Origin: an uncultured Rhodospirillaceae bacterium
GTDB taxonomy: Bacteria; Pseudomonadota; Alphaproteobacteria; UBA6615
Direction of reading: 5' to 3'
Assembly (NCBI GenBank): GCA_964530225.1
Contig: CAZHBA010000104.1
Coordinates: 15,178 to 79,177, forward strand
Length of the DNA: 64,000 nucleotides
The first letter of the stretch is position 1, and each line of letters begins with the position of its first letter. A model generated the notes under the pieces. It was given only the letters and a program-made list of their open reading frames with translations. It had not been told where the DNA came from and did no database searches. Of this stretch, positions 31,129 through 62,030 are shown piece by piece. The position numbers and the translations under genes were made by a program.

Positions 31129-31983
31129 TTGCCGGTTCTAGAAACCTTACGCCGTCTGCGCCACGGTCCGCTTTCGCGCTTCGATCGCATCTGGGTTTCG
31201 CTTGGCCGTCTGGCGCGGTTCGTAATTGCCGCCCTGCCGCGCTCGACAGTGAAACAGCGTATCGGTCCATTCGGACCCTTCCGGCTGGATGCGTACTTCG
31301 CCTTTAGTAATTTCTCCGCCTGGGGCCAGGGCCACAACAACGGCTTCCTGGCAACGGTCGAGGCTTGCCGCGGTAAAAATTGCATATTCGATATCGGCGG
31401 CCATATCGGGCTGGTCACCTTGCCGATGAGCCGAGTCGTTTCGCCGGCCGGCCGTGTCTTTAGCTTCGAACCTGGTAAAGCCAACCTCGAATTCCTGCGG
31501 TTTCACCTGGCACGCAACAACGCCACCAATGTCGAGGTCGTAGACACGCTGGTGGGGGATAGCGACGGCTGGATGGACTTCTTCGAACAAAGCGGCGCCG
31601 CCGGACAGAACTCAGTGGTGTTGAAGAAGAACCAAGAAGCCTATCAACGTGTCCGTCGGCGTCAGGTTACGCTAGACCGATTCTGTGCGGACAGCGAATT
31701 GCGGCCTGAAGTTATCAAGGTTGATGTCGAGGGAGCCGAACTAGCGGTTCTGCGCGGCGCACGCGAAACCCTCCGACGCAACCGCCCAACCCTTTTCCTC
31801 AGCGTCCATCCAACCGAACTTCGCTTGCTAGGCGAATCCGTCGACAGCCTGATGCACGAAATCGAAGATTTGGGGTATGTCTGTCTTGAGATTGGCGGGG
31901 AACCAGTCGCCGCATTTCGCCTGGCAGAGTATTTAATGTTACCGAAGGAACAAGCCAGTGGGCCTGCTAAACAGCGCGATTGA
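31129..31983 (+). CDS. FkbM-family SAM-dependent methyltransferase
   Basis: FDIGGHIGLVT (motif I) and IKVDVEGAELAVLRGA (FkbM hallmark). 284 aa. Confidence 0.7.
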   Translation: MPVLETLRRLRHGPLSRFDRIWVSLGRLARFVIAALPRSTVKQRIGPFGPFRLDAYFAFSNFSAWGQGHNNGFLATVEACRGKNCIFDIGGHIGLVTLPMSRVVSPAGRVFSFEPGKANLEFLRFHLARNNATNVEVVDTLVGDSDGWMDFFEQSGAAGQNSVVLKKNQEAYQRVRRRQVTLDRFCADSELRPEVIKVDVEGAELAVLRGARETLRRNRPTLFLSVHPTELRLLGESVDSLMHEIEDLGYVCLEIGGEPVAAFRLAEYLMLPKEQASGPAKQRD

Positions 31984-37921: not shown

Positions 37922-39421
37922 CTACGTCCTGGCACCGGTGTTGCCTAATGCAGCAGCCTCCACCCGATCCTCTGTCGCCAGCTGAAATCCCGCCCGAAGA
38001 AAACTGCTCCGGGATGCTTGGTTTTCCGGGTGGATGTCGGCCCACATCGCTTCCTCCCTCAGCAGGCGCCGCAAAGCGCGCAGCACCGCCGTACCCGTTC
38101 CTTGCCCCTGCTCGGAACCAGAGACGAGGATGGAAACCTCCCTAGGCGCCTCCCCTGACAGCGGGTCATTCCGGTCGACGCGCACCAGTCCAATGGGGAG
38201 TCCATTGGCCTCTATGATCTCACAAATGCCGAAGGGGTCGGCCAGGCGCGCTTCGCACCAGGCACGATGTGCTACGGGATCGGGCGCTGCCGGATTGCGG
38301 AAGAACCGCCGTATCCTCGGCTCTCTTTGCCAAGACAACAACGCCTCAGCATCCTCCACCCGGAAGCGCCGTAGTGTCACCGCTCTTCCTGCGCGGTCCT
38401 TTTCCGGCCGCGCTGCAAGAACAACTCTACGCGCGCCCAGCCCATCCACCAATGCGGCCCCCCGCCGCCACATGGAGTCACGCGCCGTCACATCTTCGAG
38501 CAACTCATCAAGAGCCTGCCGGGTGGCCTCAAAAATTTCTTCCGGCCCGTGCGAACGGGCATCGATTGGCAGAACACAGCCCTGCGCCGCCAGCCCCTCG
38601 ACCGTCCCACACTGGTTGTCGGCGACAACGGCGGCCAGCGATGGCAGGCCGAGACAGAGCTTTTCCTGTAGTGTAATCCCCCCGGGACCAACCGAACAAT
38701 CCGCGTCACCGAACAACTGGTCGATGTCCAGCATGTCGCGGTGACAGCGGATTCGGTCCGGTACCGAGACTGCAAGGTCCTCGACCGCTTGCCAGGATGC
38801 GGCTTGCCCGCCGAGCACCAATTCAATATTGCAATTCTCCGCCTCCCGAGATGCGAGAACCGCCCTCAAAAAGATCGGAGCAAGCCCACGGCCGTCGAGC
38901 CCCCCGGCTGTCACCAACATAGTTTTCGCGCGCGCACCGCGCCTTTCCCTGTTACGTAGCACCGCCGGGCGACGCTGGCGTATAGCTGCGCGCAGCGGCG
39001 CAAAGGTCGGGCCGAGCAAAAGCCGCGCGCTGGATGCCACAGCCTCTGAATAGGATTCCGGGCGCGCGTTGGGGGCTACATTGACGACAAGGCCACCAGC
39101 GAACTCGCAATCACCCAAATCGTCTAACACAACGGTAACGCGCGCGCCTTGCCCAATCGCCTGTATTTGGTCGCAGTCGGCAGCGTAGCTGTCGATGACG
39201 GCGACATCGCAACTGCCTTGCGCATCAGCAGACGATGGTGAAATTGGATACCGGCCTGGCGCCATCCAGCCTAACGCCTCCTGCCCCGCCTGCCCGGTCA
39301 CGAAAACCGGCCGCAGCCCGTCCTCCTCAAACGCTTCCGCCAGGGCAAGGCAGCGCGCAACATGGCCCAACCCGACACCCGGTCCCGCTTCGCAGAAAAG
39401 TCTCGCCTCGTCAGCGCTCAT
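37922..39421 (-). CDS. PseG-like UDP-2,4-diacetamido-2,4,6-trideoxy-beta-L-altropyranose hydrolase fused to a C-terminal GNAT N-acetyltransferase domain
   Basis: N-terminal ~330 aa MurG-like GT-B fold beginning …EAGPGVGLGHVARCLALAEAF (PseG glycine-rich start). C-terminal ~160 aa GNAT fold (…VRVDRND…EVSILVSGSEQGQGTGTAVLRAL…). 499 aa. Confidence 0.65.
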   Translation of the reverse strand: MSADEARLFCEAGPGVGLGHVARCLALAEAFEEDGLRPVFVTGQAGQEALGWMAPGRYPISPSSADAQGSCDVAVIDSYAADCDQIQAIGQGARVTVVLDDLGDCEFAGGLVVNVAPNARPESYSEAVASSARLLLGPTFAPLRAAIRQRRPAVLRNRERRGARAKTMLVTAGGLDGRGLAPIFLRAVLASREAENCNIELVLGGQAASWQAVEDLAVSVPDRIRCHRDMLDIDQLFGDADCSVGPGGITLQEKLCLGLPSLAAVVADNQCGTVEGLAAQGCVLPIDARSHGPEEIFEATRQALDELLEDVTARDSMWRRGAALVDGLGARRVVLAARPEKDRAGRAVTLRRFRVEDAEALLSWQREPRIRRFFRNPAAPDPVAHRAWCEARLADPFGICEIIEANGLPIGLVRVDRNDPLSGEAPREVSILVSGSEQGQGTGTAVLRALRRLLREEAMWADIHPENQASRSSFLRAGFQLATEDRVEAAALGNTGART

Positions 39422-39953
39422 CGTTTTGTAATAATCCCATGAATATACCGTCCACCCACACGCCGTCGCAGAAAAAATGCGAAGGACGGATCGCCTCCTC
39501 GGTAAAGCCGGCGCGCAGAAAAGCTTTCAGGGAGGCAAAGTTCGGCGCGTAGCAGCCAGCGGTCACTTTGGCGAGGCCGAGCGTGCCGAAACCATAGCGG
39601 CATATGGTGCAGATGGCCGAGGTGCCGATCCCAAGGTCTCGCAGGGTGCTATCGCCGACGAGGATGCCGATGTCGCCGCGGTTATGATGGGGATCGACCT
39701 GCAGCTTTATATTGCCGACATGGCGACCACCCTCCAGCAGGCGAATCGCAAACAGATGCTGGTTGGGCGACCGGTCGCAGGCGTCGACGAAGGATCGTAG
39801 ACCTTCGTGCGTCCAATCGGAAAACCTAGCCTCCAAATAACGCAACACCTCGGGGTCCTGCATCCAGTCAAAATAGGGGCCGTCGCAGATCTCGACCGTA
39901 GCCGGATCGAGCCAGATCTTGCCGTCAGATAACGCACTACGTGTCAATTGCAT
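39411..39953 (-). CDS. GNAT-family N-acetyltransferase (PseH/RimL-like)
   Basis: 180 aa with acetyl-CoA-binding motif A (…IGILVGDSTLRDLGIGTSAI…) and …HVGNIKLQ… beta-strands. Immediately upstream of the PseG-GNAT fusion. Confidence 0.65.
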   Translation of the reverse strand: MQLTRSALSDGKIWLDPATVEICDGPYFDWMQDPEVLRYLEARFSDWTHEGLRSFVDACDRSPNQHLFAIRLLEGGRHVGNIKLQVDPHHNRGDIGILVGDSTLRDLGIGTSAICTICRYGFGTLGLAKVTAGCYAPNFASLKAFLRAGFTEEAIRPSHFFCDGVWVDGIFMGLLQNDER

Positions 39954-42028: not shown

Positions 42029-43069
42029 TCAGACCCGCAACAGCGTCTTGTAGGGAAGTACGGTATGGCCCGCGACGGGCGATGCCGCGCTTGTGGTATT
42101 GCCCTTGGCAAGCGCTATCATATTCTCAAACAACGGGACTCCCGCGGCGACCGTCACCGCGGCACTGCCACTGGGCCGCGGATTAATCTCGAGAATACGA
42201 GGATGACCGGCTTGATCGTACATAATGTCGCAATCGTAGAGCCACGACAGGGAAAAGGCGCGGACCAGGTTGGTCCCCAGCTCCTGCAATTCGGGCTCAT
42301 CGACGAAGATATGGCCCTCGTTTGGCAACTGCGAATTTGCCCGCCGTCGTGGCACGACATGCACGGGCTCTCCCTGCCACGCCAGCATGTCGATGTCGAA
42401 TACCGGCTCTGATAGACGCTCCATCGCAATCAGCGGGAACGCGAACTCTGTTTGGCCGGCGCATAACTCCTTGAAGGCCATCTCGCTCAAATGAGTTTCG
42501 CGTCCATTGTATTCATCAGGCAATGAGGCCGTACCTTCCGTGTTGCCGATGACGAACACATCCCGTCCACCGCGGCCGGTCGCGGGCTTTACGACGCAGG
42601 CACCTGCCAACGCCATTACTTCACCAACCGCCGAGACTAAAGCCTGGAGATTCTCTACCTTGCGCCAGAGGGGTACAGGGATACCCTTCTCCGCCAAAAC
42701 CTCATAACAACGCGTCTTGTCGGAAAAAACGTCGAGGGTTGCGTGATCCACACACGCCAGCGTGCAGCCGGCATCGGCGATATCCTCGCGCCTGGCGCTG
42801 AGGCTCAACGCTTCTTCATCCGAACAAGGCACCAACAAATCTACCTTCGTCTGCCTCAGGATGGCCAGAACGGCGTCCGCGTAGCCCGGATCTTTGCCAT
42901 GAGGTATCGTCCAGAATCCATCCGCCAGATAGCGCGAGATATTTCCGTCGCCGGCATCAATCGCCAAAACTCGGGGCGCATGGTTTGGCGATGCCTTTAG
43001 CTGGGTTATGAGGAAGGGAATCATCTCCCCACCCGCCGACGTAAGCATGATCGTGAAGGCCACCGTCAA
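42029..43069 (-). CDS. ATP-grasp domain ligase
   Basis: CPSase-L-chain-like ATP-grasp pattern (…ACVVKPATGRGGRDVFVI…EFAFPLIAMERL…LEINPRPSGSAAV…). 346 aa. Confidence 0.65.
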   Translation of the reverse strand: MTVAFTIMLTSAGGEMIPFLITQLKASPNHAPRVLAIDAGDGNISRYLADGFWTIPHGKDPGYADAVLAILRQTKVDLLVPCSDEEALSLSARREDIADAGCTLACVDHATLDVFSDKTRCYEVLAEKGIPVPLWRKVENLQALVSAVGEVMALAGACVVKPATGRGGRDVFVIGNTEGTASLPDEYNGRETHLSEMAFKELCAGQTEFAFPLIAMERLSEPVFDIDMLAWQGEPVHVVPRRRANSQLPNEGHIFVDEPELQELGTNLVRAFSLSWLYDCDIMYDQAGHPRILEINPRPSGSAAVTVAAGVPLFENMIALAKGNTTSAASPVAGHTVLPYKTLLRV

Positions 43070-44058
43070 TCCTCAATGCTCGACGGCGTTATCGGCTCAT
43101 CGGCTTCAATGTCGACAAGCGCACGCCGTCCGAGAACCGCTTTATACTGATCTGCGGCTATTCCACGGCGATCCGGAAGAGGCCGCTTCACGGCCATGTT
43201 TTCGACGCTCAGTGGCGTTCCAGCAGGAATCGGCTCGTTCGCCACGACGCAACGCAGATAGCGCTCTCGCGCCTGACGCAAATCACCTGTCAGTGGTTTA
43301 CCTGCTACGCCCAATATCAGCTGCGTGCGGCGAATCGAATCGACCATTTGCGCAAACTGTTGCGGGCCCAGCGATATAGGGTGATCGAATCCGGCGCGCG
43401 ACGGGTCCAGTGTGAGGTGCTTTTCGATACACATCGCACCAGCAGCCACGGCCATCGACGCTACATCCGTACCCAGAGAATGGTCGGAAAATCCGCACGG
43501 CACGCCGAACCGTTCCGCCATCCAACCAATGGCCCGCAGGTTTATGCTGTCTTCCGGCACGGGATAGATCGAGGTGCATTGCAGCAGGATAGCGGGGGCC
43601 TGTCCGGCAACGGCTACCAAGGCCGCACCGATCTCGGTTCCATCGGACATGCCCGTGGACAAAATGATCGGGCGACCCGTCGCAGCGGCCTGCTGGATAA
43701 GCGCCGTATGGGTCAGCAGCCCAGAGCTTATCTTATGCGCTACGGGCTCCAACCGGTTGATCCATTCTAGCGTCTCAAAATCGCCAACCGTCGTAAAACA
43801 TGCTATGCCGCACGTGCGCGCATAGGCAAAGACTTCAGCAGTCTGTTCCTGGTTCAGACAGGCTTGCGAAAAGATGGCGTGGCTCTCTGTTCCACGCACA
43901 TAATTCTTGTCGGGATCGATCGTCTGCAGCTTCACTGCATCCGCGCCCGCCGCCATGGCGACATCGATCATACGCACGCAGGTCTCGACGCTACCTTCAT
44001 GGTTGATGCCGATTTCGGCGATAACGAACACCTCCCCAGCAGGCGGCGGAAAAATCAT
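43066..44058 (-). CDS. NeuB-family nonulosonic acid synthase (PseI-like pseudaminic acid synthase)
   Basis: VIAEIGINHEGS motif, …ILSTGMSD…, …LLQCTSIYP…, …GFSDHSLG… and a C-terminal SAF/antifreeze-like domain. 330 aa; ATGA overlap with the ATP-grasp gene. Confidence 0.8.
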   Translation of the reverse strand: MIFPPPAGEVFVIAEIGINHEGSVETCVRMIDVAMAAGADAVKLQTIDPDKNYVRGTESHAIFSQACLNQEQTAEVFAYARTCGIACFTTVGDFETLEWINRLEPVAHKISSGLLTHTALIQQAAATGRPIILSTGMSDGTEIGAALVAVAGQAPAILLQCTSIYPVPEDSINLRAIGWMAERFGVPCGFSDHSLGTDVASMAVAAGAMCIEKHLTLDPSRAGFDHPISLGPQQFAQMVDSIRRTQLILGVAGKPLTGDLRQARERYLRCVVANEPIPAGTPLSVENMAVKRPLPDRRGIAADQYKAVLGRRALVDIEADEPITPSSIED

Positions 44059-46912: not shown

Positions 46913-47895
46913 CCACTCACCCAAAACCCGCTCAGCGCACGCGCATCTGTAGCCTGGCGCAGCGCGTTGAGGGCTTCCCTGCCGTCACAGGGTGGATTAT
47001 CGCCACCCCGAACGGCGTCGACGAACTGCGTCAGCACGGCCTGGTATTCCTTGTTCGGTTCGAAGGCGTAGCGAGTCTCGGACTGCGGACTTCCAGTCGC
47101 ATCGAAACGCTGGAGATATCCTTGCCGTAGATCCGCAACGATAGCCCCAACCTCGCCAGACACCTCCAGGTATCGACGGCGAACGCGCGACCCAAAATCC
47201 AGATGCAGCGATGAAATACACCCGGCCGCATGCTGTAGAATAACTTCCGCCATGTCTTCTGTTTGAAGCTCCATCACGCCAGTCTTACGCAACACCGCGG
47301 ACACGGCCTCGGCGGGCCCAAGCAAATGGTTGGCAAGATCAATCTCGTGAATCACATCGAGAACCACACCTCCGCCGACGACGTCGTTGGCGTATCCTGT
47401 CCGGTAGTCGCGATCCGCACGCCAATCCGGGAGCCAAGATGCGCTGACAAAACGCGCCCAACGGGGTGGTCCGAGTGCTGCTATCTCGGCGGGCAGCGCC
47501 GCGACAATTTCGCGTTGGCGCAAATTGAAGACGCCGCCAACCTGTAAATGTTGTTTGGTGGCCTGATCCAGAAGGGCCCCCACCGCACCGGGGTCGTGGC
47601 CAATGGGTTTCTCGACCAAGGTCGGAACATCGGCCGACAGACTCAAAGCGAGATCGGCCTGATGCTGGCCGGTGGGTGAAGCCACCAGCGCGATGTCGGC
47701 ATTCTCCAACGCGTCCTGCGCCGTGTTAGCCAATGCCAAGCCCAGACCAGCGGCCTGCTCTCGCGCTACATCGCCCGGGTCATAGCCGACAACAGAAAGA
47801 TCCAGAGCATTAGCGTTTTTGGCATGACGCGACCCTATCGAACCCAAGCCGAGAATGGCGATGCGTTCGACCTTTCTCGGCGGAAACTCGCTCAC
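46909..47895 (-). CDS. Gfo/Idh/MocA-family NAD(P)-dependent oxidoreductase
   Basis: N-terminal Rossmann IAILGLGSIGSRHAKN and …LVEKPIG… motif. 328 aa. Confidence 0.7.
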   Translation of the reverse strand: MSEFPPRKVERIAILGLGSIGSRHAKNANALDLSVVGYDPGDVAREQAAGLGLALANTAQDALENADIALVASPTGQHQADLALSLSADVPTLVEKPIGHDPGAVGALLDQATKQHLQVGGVFNLRQREIVAALPAEIAALGPPRWARFVSASWLPDWRADRDYRTGYANDVVGGGVVLDVIHEIDLANHLLGPAEAVSAVLRKTGVMELQTEDMAEVILQHAAGCISSLHLDFGSRVRRRYLEVSGEVGAIVADLRQGYLQRFDATGSPQSETRYAFEPNKEYQAVLTQFVDAVRGGDNPPCDGREALNALRQATDARALSGFWVSG

Positions 47896-49133
47896 GCGGC
47901 CGTCTCACCAAGTACTTGGACGAGGGCGGCGATCACCCGCTCGATGTCCTCGGCCTGCATGTCCACGAATATCGGCAGCGACAGGACGCGGCAGAAATAG
48001 CTATCGCCACCAGGCAAGTCGGACAGGCCATATCGCTCAACATAATAAGGTTGCCGGTGGACTGGAATATAATGGACCTGGGTGCCAATCCCAGCGTCCC
48101 GCAATGCCGTCATGATCTGTCCCCGTATGGGCGCGAACTCCGGCGTCAGCAGGATCGGATAAAGATGGTAAGAGGGACGGCAGTCGTCGCTCCAACTTAT
48201 CGGCTGAGCGTAAGATTCCAGCGCGCCCATATGCGCGTCATAGGAAGCAGCAAGTGCTCTTCGCTGCTCGATAAATTGGTCCAACCGAGCTAGCTGGCTC
48301 GTGCCCAGCGCACATTGCAGGTCGGTCAGGCGATAGTTGAAACCGATCTCCGACATTTGATAGGCGCCAGCATAGCCTGCACCCAGCCCCAGACCAGCGA
48401 GAAAATCGGGCGCCGACGCACCTTCCTCCCGAACCAAACCATGGTTTCGCAGCCGACGAATGCGTTTCGCAAGGAAACTATCGCGGAGCGCGACCGCCCC
48501 GCCCTCGCCTGTGGCGATCGACTTGACGGGATGAAAAGAAAAACACGCCGCGAGGCTTTCCGTACAGGCTCCGACGGTGACCCAGTCTGACAGCTCAGCG
48601 GCGTAATACTCCGCACCCAACGCGTGGCAGGCGTCTTCGACGATCGTCATTTCAGCCGCACGCGCCACCGGCGCCACGGTGGTCAAATCGACGGTTTGCC
48701 CGTTGAGGTGCACCGGCAGAACCACCGTCGGCCGCAAACCTGGGAAGCGTCGAGGGAGCGTCTCGATACAGGCGGCGAGGTCTTGCTCGCGCATCAGACC
48801 CGTTTTGGGGTCCACATCGCAGAATGCTACCTCGGCGCCGGTCATGCGAACGGCGTTCGCCGTCGCCACAAAGGTCATGGCCGGCACGATCGCCACAGTT
48901 TCTGGACCCAGACCCGCCGCCATAGTGGCCAGATGGAGCGCTGCGGTCCCCGAACCGCAGACGATTATTTCGGCGCCCCCCAACCGCTCGGAAAGCGCCG
49001 CCTCGAAAGCCTCGACCCTAGGGCCTTGGGTCAACCAGTCGGATCGCAGGCAATCTGTAACCGCAGCGATGTCCTCTTCGCTAATCTGTTGGCGGCCGTA
49101 TGAAAGAAACGGTGGTTTTCCGGAGTCCGACAT
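47892..49133 (-). CDS. pseC: DegT/DnrJ/EryC1-family PLP aminotransferase (PseC-like UDP-4-amino-4,6-dideoxy-N-acetyl-beta-L-altrosamine transaminase)
   Basis: …SGTAALHLA…, …FSFHPVKSIATGEGGAVAL… (PLP Lys in HPVKS) and …DWLTQGPRV…. 413 aa, immediately downstream of pseB. Confidence 0.8.
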   Translation of the reverse strand: MSDSGKPPFLSYGRQQISEEDIAAVTDCLRSDWLTQGPRVEAFEAALSERLGGAEIIVCGSGTAALHLATMAAGLGPETVAIVPAMTFVATANAVRMTGAEVAFCDVDPKTGLMREQDLAACIETLPRRFPGLRPTVVLPVHLNGQTVDLTTVAPVARAAEMTIVEDACHALGAEYYAAELSDWVTVGACTESLAACFSFHPVKSIATGEGGAVALRDSFLAKRIRRLRNHGLVREEGASAPDFLAGLGLGAGYAGAYQMSEIGFNYRLTDLQCALGTSQLARLDQFIEQRRALAASYDAHMGALESYAQPISWSDDCRPSYHLYPILLTPEFAPIRGQIMTALRDAGIGTQVHYIPVHRQPYYVERYGLSDLPGGDSYFCRVLSLPIFVDMQAEDIERVIAALVQVLGETAA

Positions 49134-49191: not shown

Positions 49192-50193
49192 TTAGCCAAT
49201 CTCTGACAGTAGTTCGGAGATTTCTTGTTCGTTCAGAAACTGGCTATTGCGGTCACTCGAATAGGTAAAATCCTCCCCAACGGGTGTTGCGTCCGGCAGA
49301 GGATCGCGCGTACGTGACCAGAATACGAAGGAGGGTTCGATGATGTAGCGGTCGTCAAGCTCGACCGTGTTGCGCGCATCATCGCGCGTGATCATGATTT
49401 CGTGCAGCTTCTCGCCGGGGCGAATTCCCACCACGCGCTGCTCCAGATCGGGCGCGATGGCGCGGGCAAGGTCGGGAATATGCACGCTCGGGATTTTTGG
49501 CACGAAAATTTCGCCGCCTCGCATCATGTCAAGAGAGGCCAGTACGAACTGCACACTCTGGTCGAGCGTAATCAAAAAGCGCGTCATGTTCGGATCGGTG
49601 ATCGGCAGATGGTCGTTGCCGTCCTTGACGAGCTTGCAGAAGAAAGGAACGACGCTACCCCGCGAATTTACGACATTACCATAACGCACCACGGAAAACC
49701 GTGTACCGTCGGTTCCGGCGACATTGTTGGCGGCAATAAAGATTTTGTCCGACGCGAGCTTACTTGCGCCATACAGGTTCACCGGGTTTGCGGCCTTATC
49801 CGTCGACAACGCTACGACCTTCTTCACCCCCGCCCTAATCGCGGCCTGCGCCACATTTTCGGCCCCGATCACATTGGTCTGGATACATTCAAAGGGGTTG
49901 TATTCCGCCAGCGGCACATGCTTTAGCGCGGCAGCATGGATGACATAGTCAATCCCGTGCATCGCGGTCACCAGCCGCTCGCGGTCGCGCACATCGCCAA
50001 TGAAAAGCCGGACCTTGCTTCGTGCCGCTGGATTGAGGCCGAGCTCCAACTCATGGTGCTTGTGTTCGTCGCGGCTGAAAACGACCACTCTGGCCGGGTT
50101 GTGCGTTGCCAGTACCTTTTTCAGAAAATTACTCCCGAAAGAGCCCGTGCCACCGGTGATGAGGACAGACGAATTCTGCAAATTCATCGCCAA
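49192..50193 (-). CDS. pseB: UDP-N-acetylglucosamine 4,6-dehydratase (inverting), PseB/FlaA1 family
   Basis: VLITGGTGSFG, …VRDRERL…IHAAALKHVPLAEYNPFECIQTNVIGAENV…ALSTDKAANPVNLYGASKLASDKIF…TRFSVVRYGNVVNSRGSVVPFF…, near-identical in motif order to Campylobacter/Helicobacter PseB. 333 aa. Confidence 0.85.
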   Translation of the reverse strand: MAMNLQNSSVLITGGTGSFGSNFLKKVLATHNPARVVVFSRDEHKHHELELGLNPAARSKVRLFIGDVRDRERLVTAMHGIDYVIHAAALKHVPLAEYNPFECIQTNVIGAENVAQAAIRAGVKKVVALSTDKAANPVNLYGASKLASDKIFIAANNVAGTDGTRFSVVRYGNVVNSRGSVVPFFCKLVKDGNDHLPITDPNMTRFLITLDQSVQFVLASLDMMRGGEIFVPKIPSVHIPDLARAIAPDLEQRVVGIRPGEKLHEIMITRDDARNTVELDDRYIIEPSFVFWSRTRDPLPDATPVGEDFTYSSDRNSQFLNEQEISELLSEIG

Positions 50194-50746
50194 AAGAACC
50201 CTCTAAAATTCTAGAAAACAGCGTCAGGTCGAAGGTGGAAGCCTTCGCCATCGCCTATTCCGGGCCAAGTAATCTTGGGCCGGGGTGTATCTTAGATAGA
50301 AATTGAAAGACCTGGAGGCGAGACACATCCCCCGTTCGTAAAGCTACCGCACTCCCGCTCCTCTGAACCGAGGGGGAGTGCTTCCGCCGAAAAGGATTGG
50401 TACCACGGGCAAAATCGCACGGCAACTGTGTAGGTGCCACCATGACATATCATAGGTCGTATTTTGAAAGGTGGTCGCACGATTCACCGCTAACGGCGAT
50501 ACACGACGAAACGGATATTCGAGCGCCCTCGCAGCAACGTCCGTCTCTCCCTTGTCAACGGAAAGTCGTTCACGCATGTGTTGCTTGGAATGTTAAAATA
50601 GGAATCCGAGACTATCGCTGTTCGCTTCGTAGAGAGTACCACCGACAGCGCCTTGTTCGCGACCGTCCTGTCATGCTTACCTAAGGCCCACCTTCACGCG
50701 CCACACCCCAAGTAAATGCGGCCAATATCAGCGCCACCAAATCGAG

Positions 50747-51688: not shown

Positions 51689-52876
51689 TCAAACATCACT
51701 GAGTGGCGTATCCTGGAAAAATTTTTGACGTGGCAAATCCCACATCTTGGATTGGGAAAGAATGTCTGTAAACCGCCGGCCGGAATCACCGTCACCAAAT
51801 TCGATGGCGGCGTCGACGCGGTCAGGCAGGGACTGGATGGCCACAAGAATTTCTTCCTTTTTTGCCTCTACGTGAGCAATTGAAGGGCAGAAACTACGAT
51901 TTCTCTGTCGGGTTCCTATGTTGATGCTGGGTACACCAAACACCGGAGCTTCGCGGACACCAGAACTGGAATTTCCAATAATGAAGCGTGCATTTTTCAT
52001 CAGGGTGAGAAAATATTTGAAACGGATAGAGGGATAAAGAACGACATTATCTTTTGCCGCAAATCGCTCGAGTGTTTCAACGAGGGTTTCTGCACCGATA
52101 TCATTGTTAGGCCGTATGGCAATAACATTGCCGCCATGTTCGTCTAGTGCCGATAGGACCTCCTCGAACTGCTGCCCAATATTTCCGGTCTCGGTCGTAA
52201 CCGGATGGAACAACAGAATAGAATAATTCGTGAAGGACAAATCGTAGTGTTGTTGAACCTCCGAAAGCGAGGGCAGGTTTTCACTTTTCATCAGATCGAC
52301 TTCGGGAGAACCAATCACGAAAATGGTTTGTTCTGCTTCACCCAGCTGCAAAATTCTCGTCCGGGAATCCCGATTGGCTACAAAATGAATGTGGGAAAAT
52401 TTGGTCACCGCATGTCGAATTGACTCGTCGATGGTTCCGGAGACTTCGCCACCTTCGATATGCGCCACCCGCGTATTATTCATAGCGCCGGCAATAGCTC
52501 CCGCCAGGGTTTCGACCCGGTCTCCATGAACTACAAGCATGTCCGGTTTCCGCTCATTCAGGTAATGGCTCATGGGGACAATGGTGTTGGCCAGAACGAC
52601 ATCCATTTTTGACGACGTCGATGATTCCTGATTGAAAATCGGGAAGACCACCTTGTGCCCCGATTTATGAATTTCATTTATAGTATAACCGTGGCTCTCC
52701 AGCATGTGCATACCGGTGGCGATAATCTCGATTTCAAAGCTTTCAGTCGCCTCAAGGCTCTCAATCAAGGTTTGCATCTTGCCGTAGTCGGCACGGGTTC
52801 CCGTAAGGAACGCCACTCTCTTTACACGGTCTGGCTGCTCACTAGTCACTGACACAATTCCAGGATAATTGTTCAT
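51689..52876 (-). CDS. neuC: UDP-N-acetylglucosamine 2-epimerase (hydrolysing), NeuC/LegG family (start uncertain: ATG 52942/52876 or GTG 52816)
   Basis: …VAFLTGTRADYGKM…, …VHGDRVETLAGAIAGAMNNTRVAHIEGGEVSG… and …HPVTTE…, the hallmark NeuC (epimerase_2, hydrolysing) motifs. Confidence 0.75.
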   Translation of the reverse strand: MNNYPGIVSVTSEQPDRVKRVAFLTGTRADYGKMQTLIESLEATESFEIEIIATGMHMLESHGYTINEIHKSGHKVVFPIFNQESSTSSKMDVVLANTIVPMSHYLNERKPDMLVVHGDRVETLAGAIAGAMNNTRVAHIEGGEVSGTIDESIRHAVTKFSHIHFVANRDSRTRILQLGEAEQTIFVIGSPEVDLMKSENLPSLSEVQQHYDLSFTNYSILLFHPVTTETGNIGQQFEEVLSALDEHGGNVIAIRPNNDIGAETLVETLERFAAKDNVVLYPSIRFKYFLTLMKNARFIIGNSSSGVREAPVFGVPSINIGTRQRNRSFCPSIAHVEAKKEEILVAIQSLPDRVDAAIEFGDGDSGRRFTDILSQSKMWDLPRQKFFQDTPLSDV

Positions 52877-53891
52877 GTTCTTCAAGATCGCGCGTGGCGG
52901 TCTTTCCCACAACGGCCTCGTATTCATTTGCCAGAATTTCACCTGTCCCTGGACGCTTTACCCAGACGTTTTCACGCGTGAATTTATCGCCTTTGGTAAT
53001 TGCCCTTGTTGCGACGACACAGGCATAAGCGAACGCAATCGTCGGAGCTTCGTCTTCGAGAATATCCTTGGAGCCACCCCGCGCTTCAAATATCGCCCGG
53101 CTCCCCTTGACCAGGTCTGCAAGCTCAGGAGGCGACATTGAAATCGAAATGTCGGGGCCCGGCCATGACTTGTCTGAAGTGAAATGACGCTCAACAGCAA
53201 CGGCCCCCAAAGCCACGGCGGCCAGCGCAGCATAATTATCCAGAGTATGATCGCTTAACCCAATCATTTCAGTTTGAAACCGGTTCTTCATATCCTGCAT
53301 GGCGCCCAGCCTGACAGCCGAATAGGGCGTTGGATAAATGGACGTACAATGCAAAAGTAGAAGCGGTATATCGGCGGCGCGGATTATATCCACCGAGCGT
53401 TCAATGGAAGCGAGGTCGTTCATGCCGGTACTGAGAATAACCGGCCTTCCGAATGACGCTATATGTTCGACAAGGGGATAGTTATTGCATTCTCCAGAAC
53501 CGATCTTATACGCCCCGACATTCATTCCCCTGAGTTCATCGGCAGCCGCGCGGGAAAATGGCGTAGACAAATAGACCATACCCTTTTCTTCGGTATATCG
53601 CTTGAGCAAAATATCTTCGTCCAGGGTTAATGCGCAGCGCCCCATGATGTCCCAGATGCTTTCCTTGGCATTGCCTGGAATGACCTCGTTGGGGATCATT
53701 TCATCTTCAATAACATGGCGTTGAAATTTGACGCATTCACAGCCTGTAGCCGCCGCGTCATCGATCATCTGGTGAGCTTTCTCTATCGAACCCTCGTGAT
53801 TGATGCCGATCTCGGCAATGATCAACGGCAGCTGATTCGACCCAACCTCACGGTCGCCGAGAAAAAAGGGTTTATCTGTATTTACAGTCAT
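52842..53891 (-). CDS. neuB: NeuB-family N-acylneuraminate/legionaminate synthase
   Basis: From ATG 53891 (MTVNTDKPFFLGDREVGSNQLPLIIAEIGINHEGS). …VILSTGMND…, …LLHCTSIYPTP…, …GLSDHTLDN… and a C-terminal SAF domain. ATGA overlap with neuA upstream. Confidence 0.8.
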   Translation of the reverse strand: MTVNTDKPFFLGDREVGSNQLPLIIAEIGINHEGSIEKAHQMIDDAAATGCECVKFQRHVIEDEMIPNEVIPGNAKESIWDIMGRCALTLDEDILLKRYTEEKGMVYLSTPFSRAAADELRGMNVGAYKIGSGECNNYPLVEHIASFGRPVILSTGMNDLASIERSVDIIRAADIPLLLLHCTSIYPTPYSAVRLGAMQDMKNRFQTEMIGLSDHTLDNYAALAAVALGAVAVERHFTSDKSWPGPDISISMSPPELADLVKGSRAIFEARGGSKDILEDEAPTIAFAYACVVATRAITKGDKFTRENVWVKRPGTGEILANEYEAVVGKTATRDLEEHEQLSWNCVSD

Positions 53892-54628
53892 GGGTTCTTG
53901 TCCAGAAACGGAAGTTTTACGTATCCCCCGATCAGCAAGAATTCTCCCAGAGGAAATTCTAGCGGGCCATCGGCATCGAATCCCCAAATGGTGTCAACTA
54001 GAATTGGCAGGGACGGGTTTGCAAATACGAAGTCCTGTTCGAGGCAAGGTAGGGCGCGCAATACGATTACGTTTCCAAAAAGAAAGTGCTTTTGCTTTTT
54101 CTGTTTATTGTAGTTTTCGCGGATCAACTCCGGTTCCGAAAAACGCACATACCCTTCTTCTATCACCCGTTGGTTCATTGCGTGGAGTTGATGCGGGCAA
54201 TCGGTCACAGTCTGCGACGACCCCGCCTGAGAGTCTTTCTTCAAGACCGCAATGCAGTCGGTTATATGCTGCGGCAGTATGAACGGCGACGTCGGCTGAA
54301 GAAAGGCGATGTATTCCGGGATCACCCCCTCGCGGTCCTGTACCGTTTCCAGAAAATCGCGAAACACATCCATGACAGGGGTCATGTCACCGCCCAAGGC
54401 GTCCGGACGACCAATTGTTTCGATTTGCAGTTTCTCGCAATTTTCTCTGATTTCCCTGGAGTCGGTGCTACAAATTATTCGTGTGACGTCAGAACATGCC
54501 TTCGCTGCCAGTACACAGTAATCCATCAACGGCCGGCCAGCGAAAGGATGGATGTTTTTCAACGGGATGCTCTTGGAGCCGCCACGGGCGGGGACAAACC
54601 CCCAACACTCGCCTTTTTTGACATTCAT
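53888..54628 (-). CDS. neuA: N-acylneuraminate cytidylyltransferase (CMP-nonulosonic acid synthetase)
   Basis: GFVPARGGSKSIPLKN… and …IAFLQPTSPF… (CTP_transf_3). 246 aa. Confidence 0.75.
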   Translation of the reverse strand: MNVKKGECWGFVPARGGSKSIPLKNIHPFAGRPLMDYCVLAAKACSDVTRIICSTDSREIRENCEKLQIETIGRPDALGGDMTPVMDVFRDFLETVQDREGVIPEYIAFLQPTSPFILPQHITDCIAVLKKDSQAGSSQTVTDCPHQLHAMNQRVIEEGYVRFSEPELIRENYNKQKKQKHFLFGNVIVLRALPCLEQDFVFANPSLPILVDTIWGFDADGPLEFPLGEFLLIGGYVKLPFLDKNP

Positions 54629-54668: not shown

Positions 54669-56033
54669 TCATGGTCTTGCTTCCTGAACAAGATGCTCAA
54701 TCCGGTCACAATAGGTACCGGTTGCTGAACTGGTAATACTGGAAACGTATTTTTCGAAAATCGCTCGTCTTTGCAACCCAACTTCATCAGGCACGACAGG
54801 GTTCCTCAAACAATCAAGATAAAGATTTTTCAGCGCGACCCTGTCTTCCGCGATATCGAAAAGATCAAACTCATCCTCCAGCATAATATTGCCTTTATAT
54901 GCCGGCGCCCTCATCTCTTTCGTAAACGGGATAATGACGCGTTTGTTCGCAATGGCGGCCTCAAGGAGCACGGTTGAGCCATAGCCACAAACAACTGTGG
55001 ACTGAAGAATAAGTCTTTGTGAATCGGCATCGGGTTCGATCGTCAAGTTTGGCAACTCGTCAAGATCAAAATTGGCTAAGGTCAGGGTCTCGACAATTCT
55101 AGTTTTCCAAGACCCTCCCCATTTTGGCTTAATAACAAACCGCACCTCCGGATTTTCAGAAGCCAGCTCGGCAACGACCACGTGACACATGTCGAATGTC
55201 TCAAAAAAGCCGATCTCCCTTGATGCGGGAAACGGTTGGGGACCACCAAAAAGAAGACCAAGCCCAACACCGGGAGCGAAAGAAAAAAACGTCACCAGGG
55301 GCGGGACTTCCCGATCAACGATGTGGTTTTCGATTGAGTCGATGTAGTCATCCATCCTCATGCAACCGAGGGCCTCGACATTTGCGGGAGCTACGTATCC
55401 GGATGCGCAGAATGCCCGCTGAACCAATGGATTATGGACAATGAGGTGCGTCCCGTGAAATTTGCCAAGCGAGGAGGACCAATCCACAAATCTCTTCTGC
55501 AATGCACTGCTAACGACCAAGTTTTCCTTATGCAATGTCACCGCCGGTGTGCCAATCTCATGAGAAATTGCGGCCCAATCGTAATCCTGCGGATAATCAA
55601 CGCAGGCATTAACAACGCAATCAACACGTAACGCCTTAAACAGATTCGGCAGGAAATTTCGGAGGAAATTTCGGTACTGCTTCTGGCCATGTTCAAAGCG
55701 TTCGTCTTCATAAGGACGAAATACCGTCCTGCGTTCGACACCCCTTGGATAGAACTGACTGTACATAATACCCAGCCATTTGAATCTAAGGGCCAGGACC
55801 CTGAATCTGCCAGTACTAGACAGCAGTTCCAGGTCTTGTCTGAAGCGGTCGCTAGTCAGAGCTAGAATTGTTATCTGTGGGTCGCCAGGAGACTTAATCT
55901 CTTCAATAATTCGGCGGAAAAGCAAAACCACTGGCCAGGAAACGCCAAGGCGTACCAACACACGGAATAGCAGCTTCAGCGGCAAACGGAAAAAACCAAC
56001 GTCGGTCGCTAAAGAAATCAGTCGGTCTCGCAT
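54669..56033 (-). CDS. Membrane-anchored TagF/Capsule_synth-like GT-B protein (paralog A); candidate nonulosonic-acid/polymer transferase
   Basis: N-terminal TM helix (VLVRLGVSWPVVLLF). C-terminal …RFVIKPKWGG… / …LILQSTVVCGYGSTVLLEAAIANKRVIIP… resembles the KPHP…TDYSS motifs of the TagF/KpsS-type fold. Shares ILAL(T/S)…DLE(L/A)L, GCMRMD and RA(I/V)FEKYV blocks with the 56848-58197 gene. Confidence 0.45.
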   Translation of the reverse strand: MRDRLISLATDVGFFRLPLKLLFRVLVRLGVSWPVVLLFRRIIEEIKSPGDPQITILALTSDRFRQDLELLSSTGRFRVLALRFKWLGIMYSQFYPRGVERRTVFRPYEDERFEHGQKQYRNFLRNFLPNLFKALRVDCVVNACVDYPQDYDWAAISHEIGTPAVTLHKENLVVSSALQKRFVDWSSSLGKFHGTHLIVHNPLVQRAFCASGYVAPANVEALGCMRMDDYIDSIENHIVDREVPPLVTFFSFAPGVGLGLLFGGPQPFPASREIGFFETFDMCHVVVAELASENPEVRFVIKPKWGGSWKTRIVETLTLANFDLDELPNLTIEPDADSQRLILQSTVVCGYGSTVLLEAAIANKRVIIPFTKEMRAPAYKGNIMLEDEFDLFDIAEDRVALKNLYLDCLRNPVVPDEVGLQRRAIFEKYVSSITSSATGTYCDRIEHLVQEARP

Positions 56034-56061
56034 AACGTCCAGTTTTGTAGATCACTCAAGA

Positions 56062-56796
56062 TTAGTGGCCCCGCTCGACAATATCTGACAGTTTCCACAA
56101 CCCTAGACACTTTCCTTTGTGCCGTTCGTGGCTATTGTCCAGCTCTTCATCGATAATTTTTAGCGGCTCCGGGAAATTGAATGGTGGCAAAGTCATGTTC
56201 AATGGCCGCCACATGCCCGTAACAATGTCTTCATTCTTCTCGATCGGTGGGAATGTTGTTGCCAGCAAATAGGTGGAATCACTGCAGACAAAATTTTTAA
56301 TTGCCGCCTTGATGTCCCTGTTCGACAAATGAACCAGTGCATCCCTACACAGCAGGAGGTCTCCGGTTGGCGGCACTGTTTGGCAGAAGTCCATTACCAG
56401 AAATTCTCGATTATTGTTCCCGAACTTCTCGCGATTAGCTTCAATCAGGGGCTCAACAATATCGCATCCAATATAGCGACAATCCTGGATATCAATATCC
56501 TGCATCCAGAAAAAGTCGCCACAGGGCACATCGAGAAGGGTTTTAATATCGAGCTCTGCCAAGATTGCAGGCAAAGTTTCCCGTATAGCTCTTGGCCCAT
56601 TCAGACCAGACCCAGCACCAGAGCGTGAATGCGTGTTGCTCCATCGATTGGTGTGAAAATACTCCGAGAAAATTACCTGACGATCCATTGACGCCAGGCG
56701 ACGCCTTCTGAGCTTCCTCAGAAGGCGAGCCTTCAACATTGCAAGCCGGGAAATTGGTGGAAACGCCCAAACTAATTTCTGTCGGATAGTTGTCAT
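56062..56796 (-). CDS. Class I SAM-dependent methyltransferase
   Basis: Motif I LLDVPCGDFFWM and downstream acidic motif II (…YIGCDIVE…). 244 aa. Confidence 0.6.
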   Translation of the reverse strand: MTTIRQKLVWAFPPISRLAMLKARLLRKLRRRRLASMDRQVIFSEYFHTNRWSNTHSRSGAGSGLNGPRAIRETLPAILAELDIKTLLDVPCGDFFWMQDIDIQDCRYIGCDIVEPLIEANREKFGNNNREFLVMDFCQTVPPTGDLLLCRDALVHLSNRDIKAAIKNFVCSDSTYLLATTFPPIEKNEDIVTGMWRPLNMTLPPFNFPEPLKIIDEELDNSHERHKGKCLGLWKLSDIVERGH

Positions 56797-56847
56797 GCCG
56801 GTTCAATTCGGTTTTTCCATGGATTGGGCATCAACAAGCCCGTGAAC

Positions 56848-58197
56848 CTAAACGGAAACAGCCTCCACTCTGGCACCCTGCATTAAATCGATTGTTTGCT
56901 GCCTTTCTCGGGACAGCTTGCGGAAAAAGTCGACATAACGCCGTACGGCGTTGCCGTCCAAGGCAGTAACGTATTTTTCAAACACGGCACGCCGACCCGG
57001 CATCAACTCGTTATCCACCAACGGATTTTCCATACGCAGCGACAGCAATCTTTCGAGCGCCTGTCCGTCCTTGGCGACGTCAAAATACTGGTGGGCGTCG
57101 CGGAAGCGGACGGTCCCGCGGATCGATTGCTGGTCGAACACCGTGAAAACCGGCACGATAACCGGTTTCCCAGCGACACCGGCTTCCAGCAGCGTCGTCG
57201 TGTTCATGCCAAGAATGACATCACTGACCCGGATCGCTTCATGCGCGTCGAGCTGGGCGTTGAACTCCACATTCCCAACCTGCTCCAAATTCAGTCCGGA
57301 TCCGACCAGCGCCTTTTCGACTACGGCCCGCTCATAATTAAGCTGCTTTAGCTTGGGTTTAATGATGAGCCGGTAATTCGGATTGCGAGCGAAAAACCTG
57401 ATGAGTGAGCAGTAGAGTTCTTGAAAATAGGCGTCCGTCTCTTCGGGGCTGGCAACATGTTGAGCGGTCGTGAAGAAGGTCGCGGTCCCTCCATTCGGGG
57501 TTTGGTTAAATGCGCCGGCTTCGATTTCGCGCAAAAAACTATCCATCCGCATACACCCCATCGCCCATGTCTGATCATCGCGCGAATACCCCTCCGCAAC
57601 GCAAAAATCCCGTGCCGAGGTGGTGTGAACCAGGAAGTGGTCGCCCTGAAAACGGCCTAACCTTTCGAAGAAAATCCGCATTTGGCTCTTAATTTTATTC
57701 GATGAAGTTAACAAGCCCTCGCGGAAAATCGTACAATAGGGCACGTTCAGGGCCATCGTAGCGCGGCCTAAATCAATATCCGCCGGCGTGCGGATGTGAA
57801 ACGAGATCACGCTATCGCAGGGCCGTAATCGGAAATAACTTTGCAGCACCCGTCCGTAGAACTTTATTAGCCTCTGTTTGGCTTTCTCGAAGCGGCTACC
57901 GGGAGCGGGGTTCATCACGTCACGATTACGGAACCGGGATCCGTAGAAGGCAAGAACCAACGCGGTTTGCCACCAGACCGGAAACAGATAAACCTCTACC
58001 TCGCCACTGTCGGCAAGCGCCTCAAGATCGCCACGGAATCCAAAATGCGACAAGGCGAGAATCCGCAAAGGCTCCGGCGAACGCATGGGAACGGAACTGG
58101 GCTTACGTACAGTACGCCAAGCAAGAAAGCGCGCCCAAACCAGCGCGGGTAACAAAGTCACGGCGAGACGCAAGACAAATCGAAGAATTAATGTCAT
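56848..58197 (-). CDS. Membrane-anchored TagF/Capsule_synth-like GT-B protein (paralog B)
   Basis: ATG 58197 (MTLILRFVLRLAVTLLPALVW) gives an ATGA overlap with the upstream cytidylyltransferase stop. The longer ORF-track start 58341 would overlap that gene by 148 nt. Paralog of 54669-56033. Confidence 0.45.
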   Translation of the reverse strand: MTLILRFVLRLAVTLLPALVWARFLAWRTVRKPSSVPMRSPEPLRILALSHFGFRGDLEALADSGEVEVYLFPVWWQTALVLAFYGSRFRNRDVMNPAPGSRFEKAKQRLIKFYGRVLQSYFRLRPCDSVISFHIRTPADIDLGRATMALNVPYCTIFREGLLTSSNKIKSQMRIFFERLGRFQGDHFLVHTTSARDFCVAEGYSRDDQTWAMGCMRMDSFLREIEAGAFNQTPNGGTATFFTTAQHVASPEETDAYFQELYCSLIRFFARNPNYRLIIKPKLKQLNYERAVVEKALVGSGLNLEQVGNVEFNAQLDAHEAIRVSDVILGMNTTTLLEAGVAGKPVIVPVFTVFDQQSIRGTVRFRDAHQYFDVAKDGQALERLLSLRMENPLVDNELMPGRRAVFEKYVTALDGNAVRRYVDFFRKLSRERQQTIDLMQGARVEAVSV

Positions 58198-60873: not shown

Positions 60874-61362
60874 TCATACGACTCTAATGTGACTGAGCGG
60901 TGTCGTGACCTTGACTTGACGACCCATCAGGTGAAGCAAGACCTCGGCACGCCGATGTCCAGGTAGGCGAATAATTACACCGAACTGCTGATCCAGCGGG
61001 CCATCGGCCAGAACGACTTTATCCCCGGCCCGCAGTGAGGGATCTTCTGGCTGAAGCATGATCAGCCCGTCCGCATTTTCACGGCTCATGATTTCCTCGA
61101 CAACACCGGCAGGCACAGCGCTTGGTTTGGGTCCAAACTGCACGAGATTGGCGACGCCAAAAGTACCGTTCACCGACCGCCAGCGCGCCGTTTCAAGATC
61201 CAGTTCCACAAAGAGGTAACGCGGAAATAGCGGGATACGGCGAACGTTCGCTCGGACACCAGCAATATAAGGGCAGTAGCTGCGAAAACCCTGCCGCTGC
61301 AGGTTGATTTCGGCCACCCGCTCTGAGCTTGGCTTCGTCCGGACGACAAACCAGCAGCTCAC
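60874..61362 (-). CDS. NusG-paralog transcription antiterminator (RfaH/UpxY/LoaP-like)
   Basis: GTG 61362 (GGAGA RBS 7 nt upstream) gives (M)SCWFVVRTKPSSERVAEINLQRQGF…, the NGN-domain start typical of NusG paralogs. C-terminal KOW-like segment (…GDKVVLADGPLDQQFGVII…). The 500 nt upstream within the same long ORF are low-complexity Gly/Arg/Cys-rich and not protein-like. GTGA overlap with the regulator gene upstream. Confidence 0.65.
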   Translation of the reverse strand: MSCWFVVRTKPSSERVAEINLQRQGFRSYCPYIAGVRANVRRIPLFPRYLFVELDLETARWRSVNGTFGVANLVQFGPKPSAVPAGVVEEIMSRENADGLIMLQPEDPSLRAGDKVVLADGPLDQQFGVIIRLPGHRRAEVLLHLMGRQVKVTTPLSHIRVV

Positions 61363-62030
61363 TTTAGGTCTCCACGATTTACCAGCCCAGCCCGAGAAAT
61401 CTTCAACAGCCCAGCAGCAAATACATTTTGCTTGCCGAGCCTCTCTGACCACAGGTCGTAACTCTTCTGGGGGGACCGCATATCGCTGATGATAACCGCC
61501 TCCACCGAGTCCAAGTCCACGAGATCGGCAACCACTGGCAGACCCGCAACCCGACCCCCGGCCGCCGAAGCATCTACAATGCCGGTAATTTCCAAGGTGC
61601 TGTCCAGTGCGGTCAGGGCCATAATCTCGGCCAAATCTCCGGCTCCAACCAAGGCAAGCCGTTTTTTTTGATGCTGCTCCGCTAACGCGCAAACTTCCTT
61701 GGCCTGTTCTCGCGCGAGCCGAAAAAATTCCAGCGATGTGGAAAGATACTCCCCCGTCAGCCTTGCTTTTTCCGTAAACCCTATTGGCGTTAAGTAATAG
61801 GCATACCGATTGGCAGGCACTTGCTGGACCTTTACCCAACCTTTCTTGATGCATCTTTTCAGATAAGCGTTGGCGAGGCCCAATGCGATTCCAAGCTCTT
61901 TTGCCAGACTGCGTTGGGAAAGAGTGCTGCTTTCTTCAATCGCGGACAGCATCCCGAGCGTAATCGTTACCTCGTTGGAGGTCTGTTCATCGGCTGTATC
62001 TAGCTCCAGCTTTCTCTTGTTATCGTTCAT
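61359..62030 (-). CDS. Winged-helix transcriptional regulator with C-terminal Rossmann-like domain
   Basis: N-terminal wHTH (…LSQRSLAKELGIALGLANAYLKRCIKKGWV…) and C-terminal …RLALVGAGDLAEIMALTAL…ITGIVD… domain. 223 aa. The start codon lies inside a GTTCA-N5-TGAAC palindrome. Confidence 0.55.
   Translation of the reverse strand: MNDNKRKLELDTADEQTSNEVTITLGMLSAIEESSTLSQRSLAKELGIALGLANAYLKRCIKKGWVKVQQVPANRYAYYLTPIGFTEKARLTGEYLSTSLEFFRLAREQAKEVCALAEQHQKKRLALVGAGDLAEIMALTALDSTLEITGIVDASAAGGRVAGLPVVADLVDLDSVEAVIISDMRSPQKSYDLWSERLGKQNVFAAGLLKISRAGLVNRGDLK

Follow-up and report, generated by a model that had tools for sequence, protein, structure and literature searches.

Two paralogous genes, here termed A (54669-56033) and B (56848-58197), lie inside a long minus-strand operon in a 64,000-nt stretch of DNA from an uncultured Rhodospirillaceae bacterium (contig CAZHBA010000104.1, assembly GCA_964530225.1), the whole of which is referred to as the window. 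We consider it reasonably probable that their products are glycosyltransferases (GT) of the GT-B fold that depend on CMP-activated nonulosonic acids (NulO), form a new family and are distant kin of two enzymes from Tannerella forsythia. The original prediction had put both proteins forward as candidate NulO transferases. This is still the best reading of the locus, given the sequence similarity of the family to BFO_1060 and its near-obligate linkage to genes for NeuB and CMP-NulO synthetases. The paralogy of A and B, the fold, the size of the family, its distant homology to BFO_1060 and TIGR04396 and its gene neighbourhood were observed here.

BLASTP aligned A with B over the whole length (28% identity, 46% positives, E 8e-54), a similarity well outside what chance would give and in agreement with the earlier description of the pair as paralogues flanking a methyltransferase gene; the intervening gene encodes a class-I S-adenosylmethionine (SAM) methyltransferase. 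The shared sequence blocks quoted at the time (ITILAL/LRILAL, LGCMRMD/MGCMRMD and RRAIFEKYV/RRAVFEKYV) are real and belong to the most conserved columns family-wide. An identical copy of gene A is found on a contig of assembly GCA_035092285.1. For B, a start at position 58197 was preferred, since its ATG overlaps the TGA stop codon of the upstream cytidylyltransferase gene as ATGA and since NCBI calls a product of 449 aa on a contig that has gene A in identical form. In a longer open reading frame (ORF) of 497 aa, starting at 58341, the additional residues weakly resemble the N-terminus of A; this start was rejected because of a 148-nt overlap with the cytidylyltransferase gene.

Both proteins begin with a hydrophobic segment, with the Kyte-Doolittle mean over 19 residues peaking at 1.93 in A and 2.01 in B. 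Of the N-terminal transmembrane helix proposed before, the hydrophobic peak was found, but a canonical helix was rejected: each segment contains two Arg and one Pro, and the hydrophobicity is poorly kept across the family, most members peaking below 1.6. AlphaFold confidence for A is low at residues 1-20 and stands at 79 by residues 21-30. A peripheral or amphipathic anchor fits this sequence composition better than a canonical transmembrane helix, and calling the proteins membrane-anchored overstates what is an Arg-containing hydrophobic segment.

A word-indexed search with A returned 38 relatives, every one unnamed, and an exhaustive profile search identified 2,695 clusters (50% identity) at E <= 1e-3, including 721 at E <= 1e-30. 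Among species-representative genomes, which were searched with a 12-sequence sub-alignment of the family, carriers were found in Rhodospirillaceae, Gammaproteobacteria, Pseudobdellovibrionaceae, Armatimonadota and Parcubacteria assemblies. A Pfam scan of A, B and a 627-aa protein encoded in the same operon (protein C) gave no relevant family. Profile searches against PDB sequences, using the A family either in full length or restricted to the C-terminal domain (C-domain), yielded only noise (E about 1). All 38 aligned members were then scanned against NCBIfam and Pfam, counting matches at E <= 0.01. BFO_1060_trans (NF046086) was matched by 36 of them (best E 5e-21) and TIGR04396 by 30, on the C-terminal half (best E 6e-17). 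Other NCBIfam matches comprised TarF and TarB, with two relatives each, and one stray FabT, and the Pfam matches were weak (DUF354 in seven relatives, Glyphos_transf, PF04464, in one at E 0.0058, and LpxB in one). Judged by these profiles, BFO_1060 and TIGR04396 are the only significant sequence relatives of the A/B family. Neither A (13.4 bits) nor B (17.7 bits) qualifies as a member of TIGR04396, the cut-off of which is 125.

Of the families that significantly resemble the A/B family in sequence, only BFO_1060 has been studied functionally. It includes the T. forsythia proteins Tanf_01245 and TFUB4_00887, which transfer a derivative of pseudaminic acid (Pse) and of legionaminic acid (Leg), respectively; when these genes are deleted, the S-layer O-glycan loses its terminal Pse or Leg derivative (PMC5420450). 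The Tannerella enzymes are similar in size to A and B (442-445 aa vs 449-454 aa), are predicted to be GT-B/TagB-like, and are encoded next to CMP-NulO biosynthesis genes, with a methyltransferase gene intervening in strain UB4 (PMC5420450). Unlike A and B, which show K-P-K in the corresponding region of the C-domain, they carry HP and D/E-D/E-G motifs, and these motifs served as an argument for the use of CMP-sugars (PMC5420450). They also have no predicted transmembrane region (PMC5420450), whereas A and B possess the hydrophobic N-terminus, and the conserved tandem pair sets the genes described here apart. TIGR04396, named 'surface carbohydrate biosynthesis protein', is kin by sequence and has no assigned activity; no mention of it turned up in a literature search, and it adds relatedness, not function.

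The gene neighbourhood was surveyed in 15 independent loci with a family member, the window excluded. A NeuB homologue was present in 13 loci and a synthetase of the CTP_transf_3 family in 14, mostly within 10 kb, and at least one of the two occurred in all 15. The exceptions were a 4.6-kb contig, a locus encoding PseB, PseC, NeuC and a synthetase with no NeuB in range, and a locus with the synthetase 7 kb off. In the window, A and B each directly adjoin a CMP-NulO synthetase gene. In the window (gene B) as well as in loci L001 and L002, the family gene begins before the synthetase gene has ended, and in L006 it starts 3 nt after the synthetase. Loci with two family genes (L001, L006, L012 and L013) carry two to three NeuB genes. 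Methyltransferase genes also lie beside family genes in L002, L004 and L018, and a homologous ATP-binding cassette (ABC) gene was found near family genes in L001, L006, L013, L014 and L018. A compact, minimal form of the arrangement is seen in the operon of L018, which encodes a NusG-like protein, the family protein, NeuB, NeuC, a methyltransferase, a CMP synthetase and an ABC exporter.

In L001 and L006, which belong to two other metagenome-assembled genomes, the two family copies are adjacent. A neighbour-joining tree, calculated with no bootstrap, groups the upstream copies of both loci with B and the downstream copies with A. By this grouping into B-type and A-type copies, the duplication predates the lineages concerned. 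The window and L001 are collinear over synthetase, B-type gene, A-type gene, synthetase, NeuB, NeuC and sulfotransferase. Related loci additionally carry, upstream of the synthetase and B-type gene, a set encoding a 517-aa NeuB-cupin fusion, a methyltransferase and a dihydrodipicolinate synthase (DHDPS)-family protein. The fusion is located at 4333-5886 in L001 and at 4197-5750 in L006, and is also found in L009, L011, L012 and L013; the window lacks this set, the product of which may be a different ulosonic acid.

The structure of A was modelled with AlphaFold2 from the 38-sequence alignment (pLDDT 92.4, pTM 0.89). The model consists of two Rossmann-like alpha/beta domains, has a C-terminal helix that crosses back, and places A in the GT-B fold, the class of fold on which the original prediction depended. 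All structural matches are remote, with Foldseek TM-scores of at most 0.50 at identities of 10-13%. Enzymes of the 2-epimerase/hydrolase type head the Foldseek list (E about 1e-9, TM-scores 0.40-0.50), the NeuC structures 5zlr and 5xvs among them. In structural comparison, the fold also matches GT4 enzymes (scores of 17.9 for WlaC, 17.7 for PimA and 16.9 for BshA). On the modelled structure alone, an epimerase-like enzyme cannot be told from a transferase, nor a transferase dependent on CMP/CDP from one that uses NDP-sugars.

Conservation across 180 relatives singles out a set of near-invariant polar positions, which are, in the numbering of A, D67, D150, E170, G223, R226, D228, K302 (98%), K304 (99%), N329, S353, T354, E358 and R422. 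Since A and B both keep every one of these residues, both paralogues are probably active. The predicted secondary structure of A places K302-P-K304 after the second C-domain strand, and S353-T354 together with E358 in the loop and the beginning of the helix behind strand four. In GT-B enzymes, the latter position is the usual phosphate- and ribose-binding site. With regard to histidines, H168 is not conserved (Phe in B), and H284 is 91% conserved (Tyr in B).

The gene content of the locus indicates that it makes two different NulOs, one of the Neu/Leg type and one of the Pse type. From these data we infer, as follows, donor, acceptor, the roles of individual residues and how A and B share the work. 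The donors would be the CMP-activated Neu/Leg-type and Pse-type sugars provided by the same operon. The C-terminal Rossmann domain would bind CMP, with K302-P-K304 and S353-T354 contacting the phosphate and E358 the ribose; K304 would take the place of the HP-motif His of sialyltransferases and TagF-type enzymes. R226, which is part of an invariant G-x-x-R-M-D hinge motif, and R422 are candidate ligands of the NulO carboxylate, and an acidic residue of the N-terminal domain (E170, D150 or D67) may activate the acceptor hydroxyl. Through the hydrophobic, Arg-bearing N-terminus, both proteins would be held at the inner membrane, on its cytoplasmic side, where A and B could add one NulO each, or form two linkages. 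The acceptor would be a lipid-linked glycan assembled by the GT4 enzymes of the locus. This glycan would subsequently receive methyl and sulfate groups and be exported through the ABC transporter encoded at the operon head.

From adjacency alone, one might assign the PseF-like synthetase 1 to B, and synthetase 2 together with NeuB and NeuC to A. Each copy of the tandem pair has a CMP-NulO synthetase gene of its own beside it, and ahead of the pair lie genes for a dedicated exporter of the ABC type and for an RfaH-like antiterminator. A bolder idea, to which we give only a small chance, is that the B-type and A-type proteins act as a two-enzyme polymerase, producing a chain or repeat with two different NulOs that is further methylated and sulfated. 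If so, the family would found a new CAZy family, with Lys replacing the HP-motif His of CMP-sugar-dependent GT-B enzymes.

Several observations speak against assigning NulO transfer to A and B. The HP and [DE][DE]G sialyltransferase motifs are found nowhere in A or B. The approximately 2,700 clusters of the family are all unnamed. Membership in BFO_1060 fails for both proteins: against a cut-off of 200 bits, A scores 25.3 bits (residues 280-391) and B 34.0 bits (E 1.7e-8, residues 288-476 of the 497-aa ORF), and the alignment is limited to the C-terminal ~110-190 residues. Furthermore, SpsB of Bacillus subtilis, a TagB-domain protein encoded beside CMP-Leg genes, is dispensable for Leg transfer (PMC7439481).

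As a first alternative, A and B could be glycosyltransferases that serve this surface-glycan pathway with an ordinary UDP-, GDP- or dTDP-sugar as donor, the NulO being added by another enzyme, for example by protein C, by a weak 364-aa GT-like protein (35158-36252) or by one encoded outside the window. The missing sialyltransferase motifs and the SpsB precedent would suit such enzymes, and the GT-B fold of A is no less close to the GT4 enzymes named above than to any other enzyme. We nevertheless regard this as unlikely, because the linkage of the family is specific to NeuB and CMP-synthetase genes, with the synthetase abutted or overlapped in four loci, and does not extend to sugar clusters generally, and because the number of family genes tracks that of NeuB genes. 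Similarity is moreover confined to BFO_1060, TIGR04396, TarF and TarB; the GT4 families Glycos_transf_1 and Glyco_trans_4 were never matched by family members at E <= 0.01. For NulO transfer by A and B themselves, it is also relevant that the ORFs scanned from 32.9 to 63.4 kb of the window include no member of the known sialyl- or NulO-transferase families (GT38/42/52/80, Capsule_synth/GT118, Maf).

Comparison with enzymes using cytidine-nucleotide-linked donors brings up a second possibility, namely that A and B are TagF/TarL-like phosphotransferases, which would take an alditol-phosphate, or some other unit linked through phosphate, from a CDP donor and attach it to the glycan. TagF, TarL, TarF and TagB (PF04464) and the TagF-like domain of Bcs3 are peripheral membrane enzymes with such donors, as proposed for A and B, and the few TarF, TarB and PF04464 matches among the 38 relatives point in the same direction. 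The K-P-x of A and B stands at what we take to be the position of K-x-H-P in TagF-type enzymes, which would also favour this assignment. The label 'TagF-like' used previously holds for the fold but not for sequence membership, as A and B themselves have no PF04464 match at E <= 1. TagF-type enzymes have a His after the second strand of the C-domain, where Lys is conserved in the A/B family. The family associates with NeuB genes, which it tracks across phyla, and not with teichoic-acid genes, and the three cytidylyltransferase domains encoded in the locus all belong to CTP_transf_3, the CMP-Kdo/NulO type. CDP-alditol supply genes (TagD, TarI, TarJ or IspD-type) were absent from the ORFs scanned, and the only sizeable gap in the tightly packed operon (50194-50746, 554 nt, between the sulfotransferase and PseB genes) was examined for a hidden small TagD-like gene and holds no credible ORF. 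With the CDP-alditol genes missing from the scanned locus, a TagF-like phosphotransferase is disfavoured and in our view very doubtful, and the transfer of glycerol- or ribitol-phosphate, offered initially as an equal alternative, becomes unlikely.

That A and B are no transferases at all, but GT-B enzymes modifying NulO nucleotide sugars as 2-epimerase/hydrolase kin of NeuC, LegG and PseG, draws its sole support from the structural ranking of such enzymes at the head of the Foldseek list and is highly improbable, given the low TM-scores and identities of these matches, the lack of a match to Epimerase_2 (PF02350) in any family member at E <= 0.01, the presence of a bona fide NeuC and a PseG in the locus already, a hydrophobic N-terminus unexpected in such soluble enzymes, and a site right behind the CMP-synthetase gene, which suggests a step after activation.

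Other transferases of NulO and related sugars were compared as well. KpsS1 (GT118) is the retaining Pse5Ac7Ac transferase of Acinetobacter baumannii; together with KpsS/KpsC (GT107), WbbB (GT99) and KrkA (GT140), it transfers ulosonic acids (Pse or 3-deoxy-D-manno-oct-2-ulosonic acid, Kdo) from CMP donors in ABC-transporter-dependent capsule or O-antigen synthesis (PMC12887879). The earlier designation of A and B as 'KpsS-like' (GT107, GT118) is unsupported, with no match to PF05159 (Capsule_synth) in A, B or any of the 38 relatives and no KpsC or WbbB-type chain among the 60 best structural matches. The GT-B sialyltransferases GT38, GT52 and GT80 match the structure of A much more weakly than TarL, GT4 enzymes and epimerases do, and differ from A and B in the HP and D/E-D/E-G motifs and by the absence of sequence similarity of A and B to PDB chains. 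For Maf/DUF115, no Pfam match was obtained in A, B or the relatives, and no flagellar genes were present among the annotated ORFs of the window.

To our knowledge, Pse/Leg-type transferases are few: Maf and FlmG, which act on flagellins, KpsS1 of GT118 and the two enzymes from Tannerella. As late as 2018, a transferase of Leg in protein glycosylation was described as unidentified (PMC6137143). What is new here is a candidate GT-B ulosonic-acid transferase with K-P-K instead of the HP motif. The A/B proteins thereby offer a widespread candidate family for a poorly populated enzyme class, one that has no Pfam model, name or solved structure and now comes with a high-confidence fold model, candidate catalytic residues and the compact operon of L018. 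Should the proposed activity hold true, NulO-bearing glycans could be annotated in many environmental genomes, and new enzymes would be at hand for the chemoenzymatic synthesis of Pse and Leg glycosides. Otherwise, A and B would be a further case of GT-B enzymes encoded in a polysaccharide cluster.

Protein C had been grouped with A and B as a third related protein on account of its C-terminal pattern. The pattern is literally present in all three (KPKW...GST in A, KPKL...NTT in B and KPYP...ATST in C), but relatedness is not borne out. BLASTP found no similarity of C to A or B (E > 1), and comparisons of the A/B family, represented by 38 and 180 sequences, with the C family by hhalign/hmmsearch gave no significant result (E 0.018 and 0.0055; probability 2.6% and 6.6%). 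The alignments of C with A/B keep one register, in which VVFKPYPES pairs with FVIKPKWGG, PNVTID with PNLTIE and VVTLGATSTL with VVCGYGSTVL, and a kinship is possible. Only six clusters of protein C were found in 5.8 billion proteins, and a second search with the alignment gave the same six. These six proteins have no match in NCBIfam (E <= 10), and none was found in Pfam or the PDB; the AlphaFold model built from the 6-sequence alignment is unusable (pLDDT 38.5). In the window and on two other contigs alike, protein C lies within a NulO locus of the Pse type, and its neighbours there comprise PIG-L, NeuB, ATP-grasp, asparagine-synthase-like, PhyH, formyltransferase and PseG-GNAT genes. The features of the locus are listed in Table 1.

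Table 1 Features of the nonulosonic acid locus, in transcription order of the operon, with the PAPS synthesis gene last. TMD-NBD, transmembrane and nucleotide-binding domains; PAPS, 3'-phosphoadenosine 5'-phosphosulfate.
Feature	Position	Strand	Remarks
RfaH/NusG-like protein	60874-61854	-	First in transcription order; domain only at residues 167-322 of 326-aa ORF
Fused TMD-NBD ABC exporter, 617 aa	58923-60776	-	ABC_membrane and ABC_tran; operon head
CMP-nonulosonate synthetase 1, 240 aa	58194-58916	-	Pfam CTP_transf_3 E 7e-23; directly upstream of B
Paralogue B, 449 aa	56848-58197	-	B-type clade of unnamed family
Class-I SAM methyltransferase, 244 aa	56062-56796	-	Pfam Methyltransf_25 E 4.2e-6
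Paralogue A, 454 aa	54669-56033	-	Predicted GT-B fold; A-type clade; candidate CMP-nonulosonate glycosyltransferase
CMP-nonulosonate synthetase 2, 246 aa	53888-54628	-	CTP_transf_3 E 4e-20; PseF model E 4.5e-22; directly downstream of A
NeuB-type nonulosonate synthase 1	52842-53987	-	Pfam NeuB E 2e-72; TIGR03569 362.9 bits
NeuC-type hydrolysing UDP-GlcNAc 2-epimerase	51689-52942	-	TIGR03568 407 bits, exceeding cut-off of 235.9
Sulfotransferase PF13469	50747-51658	-	Directly after NeuC; same order in L001 and L006
PseB	49192-50193	-	Equivalog, over cut-off
PseC	47892-49133	-	Equivalog, over cut-off
Cytidylyltransferase-aminotransferase fusion, 696 aa	44834-46924	-	CTP_transf_3 at residues 14-184, third cytidylyltransferase domain of the locus; class-III aminotransferase at residues 304-645
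Second NeuB/PseI-type nonulosonate synthase	43066-44058	-	TIGR03569 256 bits; TIGR03586 PseI 228 bits
Protein C, 627 aa	40034-41917	-	Orphan, within Pse-type part of locus
Separate GNAT	39411-39953		Next to PseG-GNAT fusion
PseG-like UDP-sugar hydrolase with C-terminal GNAT fusion	37922-39421	-	TIGR03590 146.7 bits, slightly below cut-off of 153.55
CysN/CysC fusion (PAPS synthesis)	29329-31125	+	20 kb from sulfotransferase

At the head of the operon, the start of the RfaH/NusG-like gene is possibly internal; otherwise the protein carries an N-terminal extension of ~160 aa. An ops element GGCGGTAG was sought near this gene and none was found nearby, the three sites located elsewhere being at chance level. 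The ABC exporter scores 288 bits against the HepA family, 240 against MsbA and 187 against PglK, every one under the respective cut-off, and likely exports or flips the glycan product. Synthetase 1 matches the PseF model TIGR03584 at E 2.8e-36 (125 bits, under cut-off), and the methyltransferase lies barely above the cut-off of Methyltransf_25 (27.8 bits vs 27), with weaker matches to Methyltransf_12 and Methyltransf_11. The longest ORFs of NeuB1 and NeuC run ~100 nt into the preceding genes, and the NCBI call for NeuB1 is 349 aa long; the true starts are therefore probably internal. Given the sulfotransferase and the CysN/CysC fusion, the glycan is probably sulfated. The gap following the sulfotransferase gene could house an internal promoter or a regulatory RNA.

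Towards its end, the operon continues with PseC, an oxidoreductase, the cytidylyltransferase-aminotransferase fusion, a PIG-L deacetylase, NeuB/PseI, an ATP-grasp enzyme, protein C, GNAT, the PseG-GNAT fusion and several GT4 glycosyltransferases. The cytidylyltransferase-aminotransferase fusion is also encoded near a protein C homologue on a JGI contig. Genes for a heparinase II/III-like protein (25936-27597, +), a TviB-like UDP-GlcNAc 6-dehydrogenase (27697-28971, -) and two FkbM-family methyltransferases (31129-32908, +) border the glycan locus. A gene for the cell-cycle regulator GcrA at 23254-23802 (+) assigns the bacterium to the Alphaproteobacteria, and the housekeeping genes hemC, hemD, tsaD, gpsA, acs, rsmB and rpe occupy 12-26 kb of the window.

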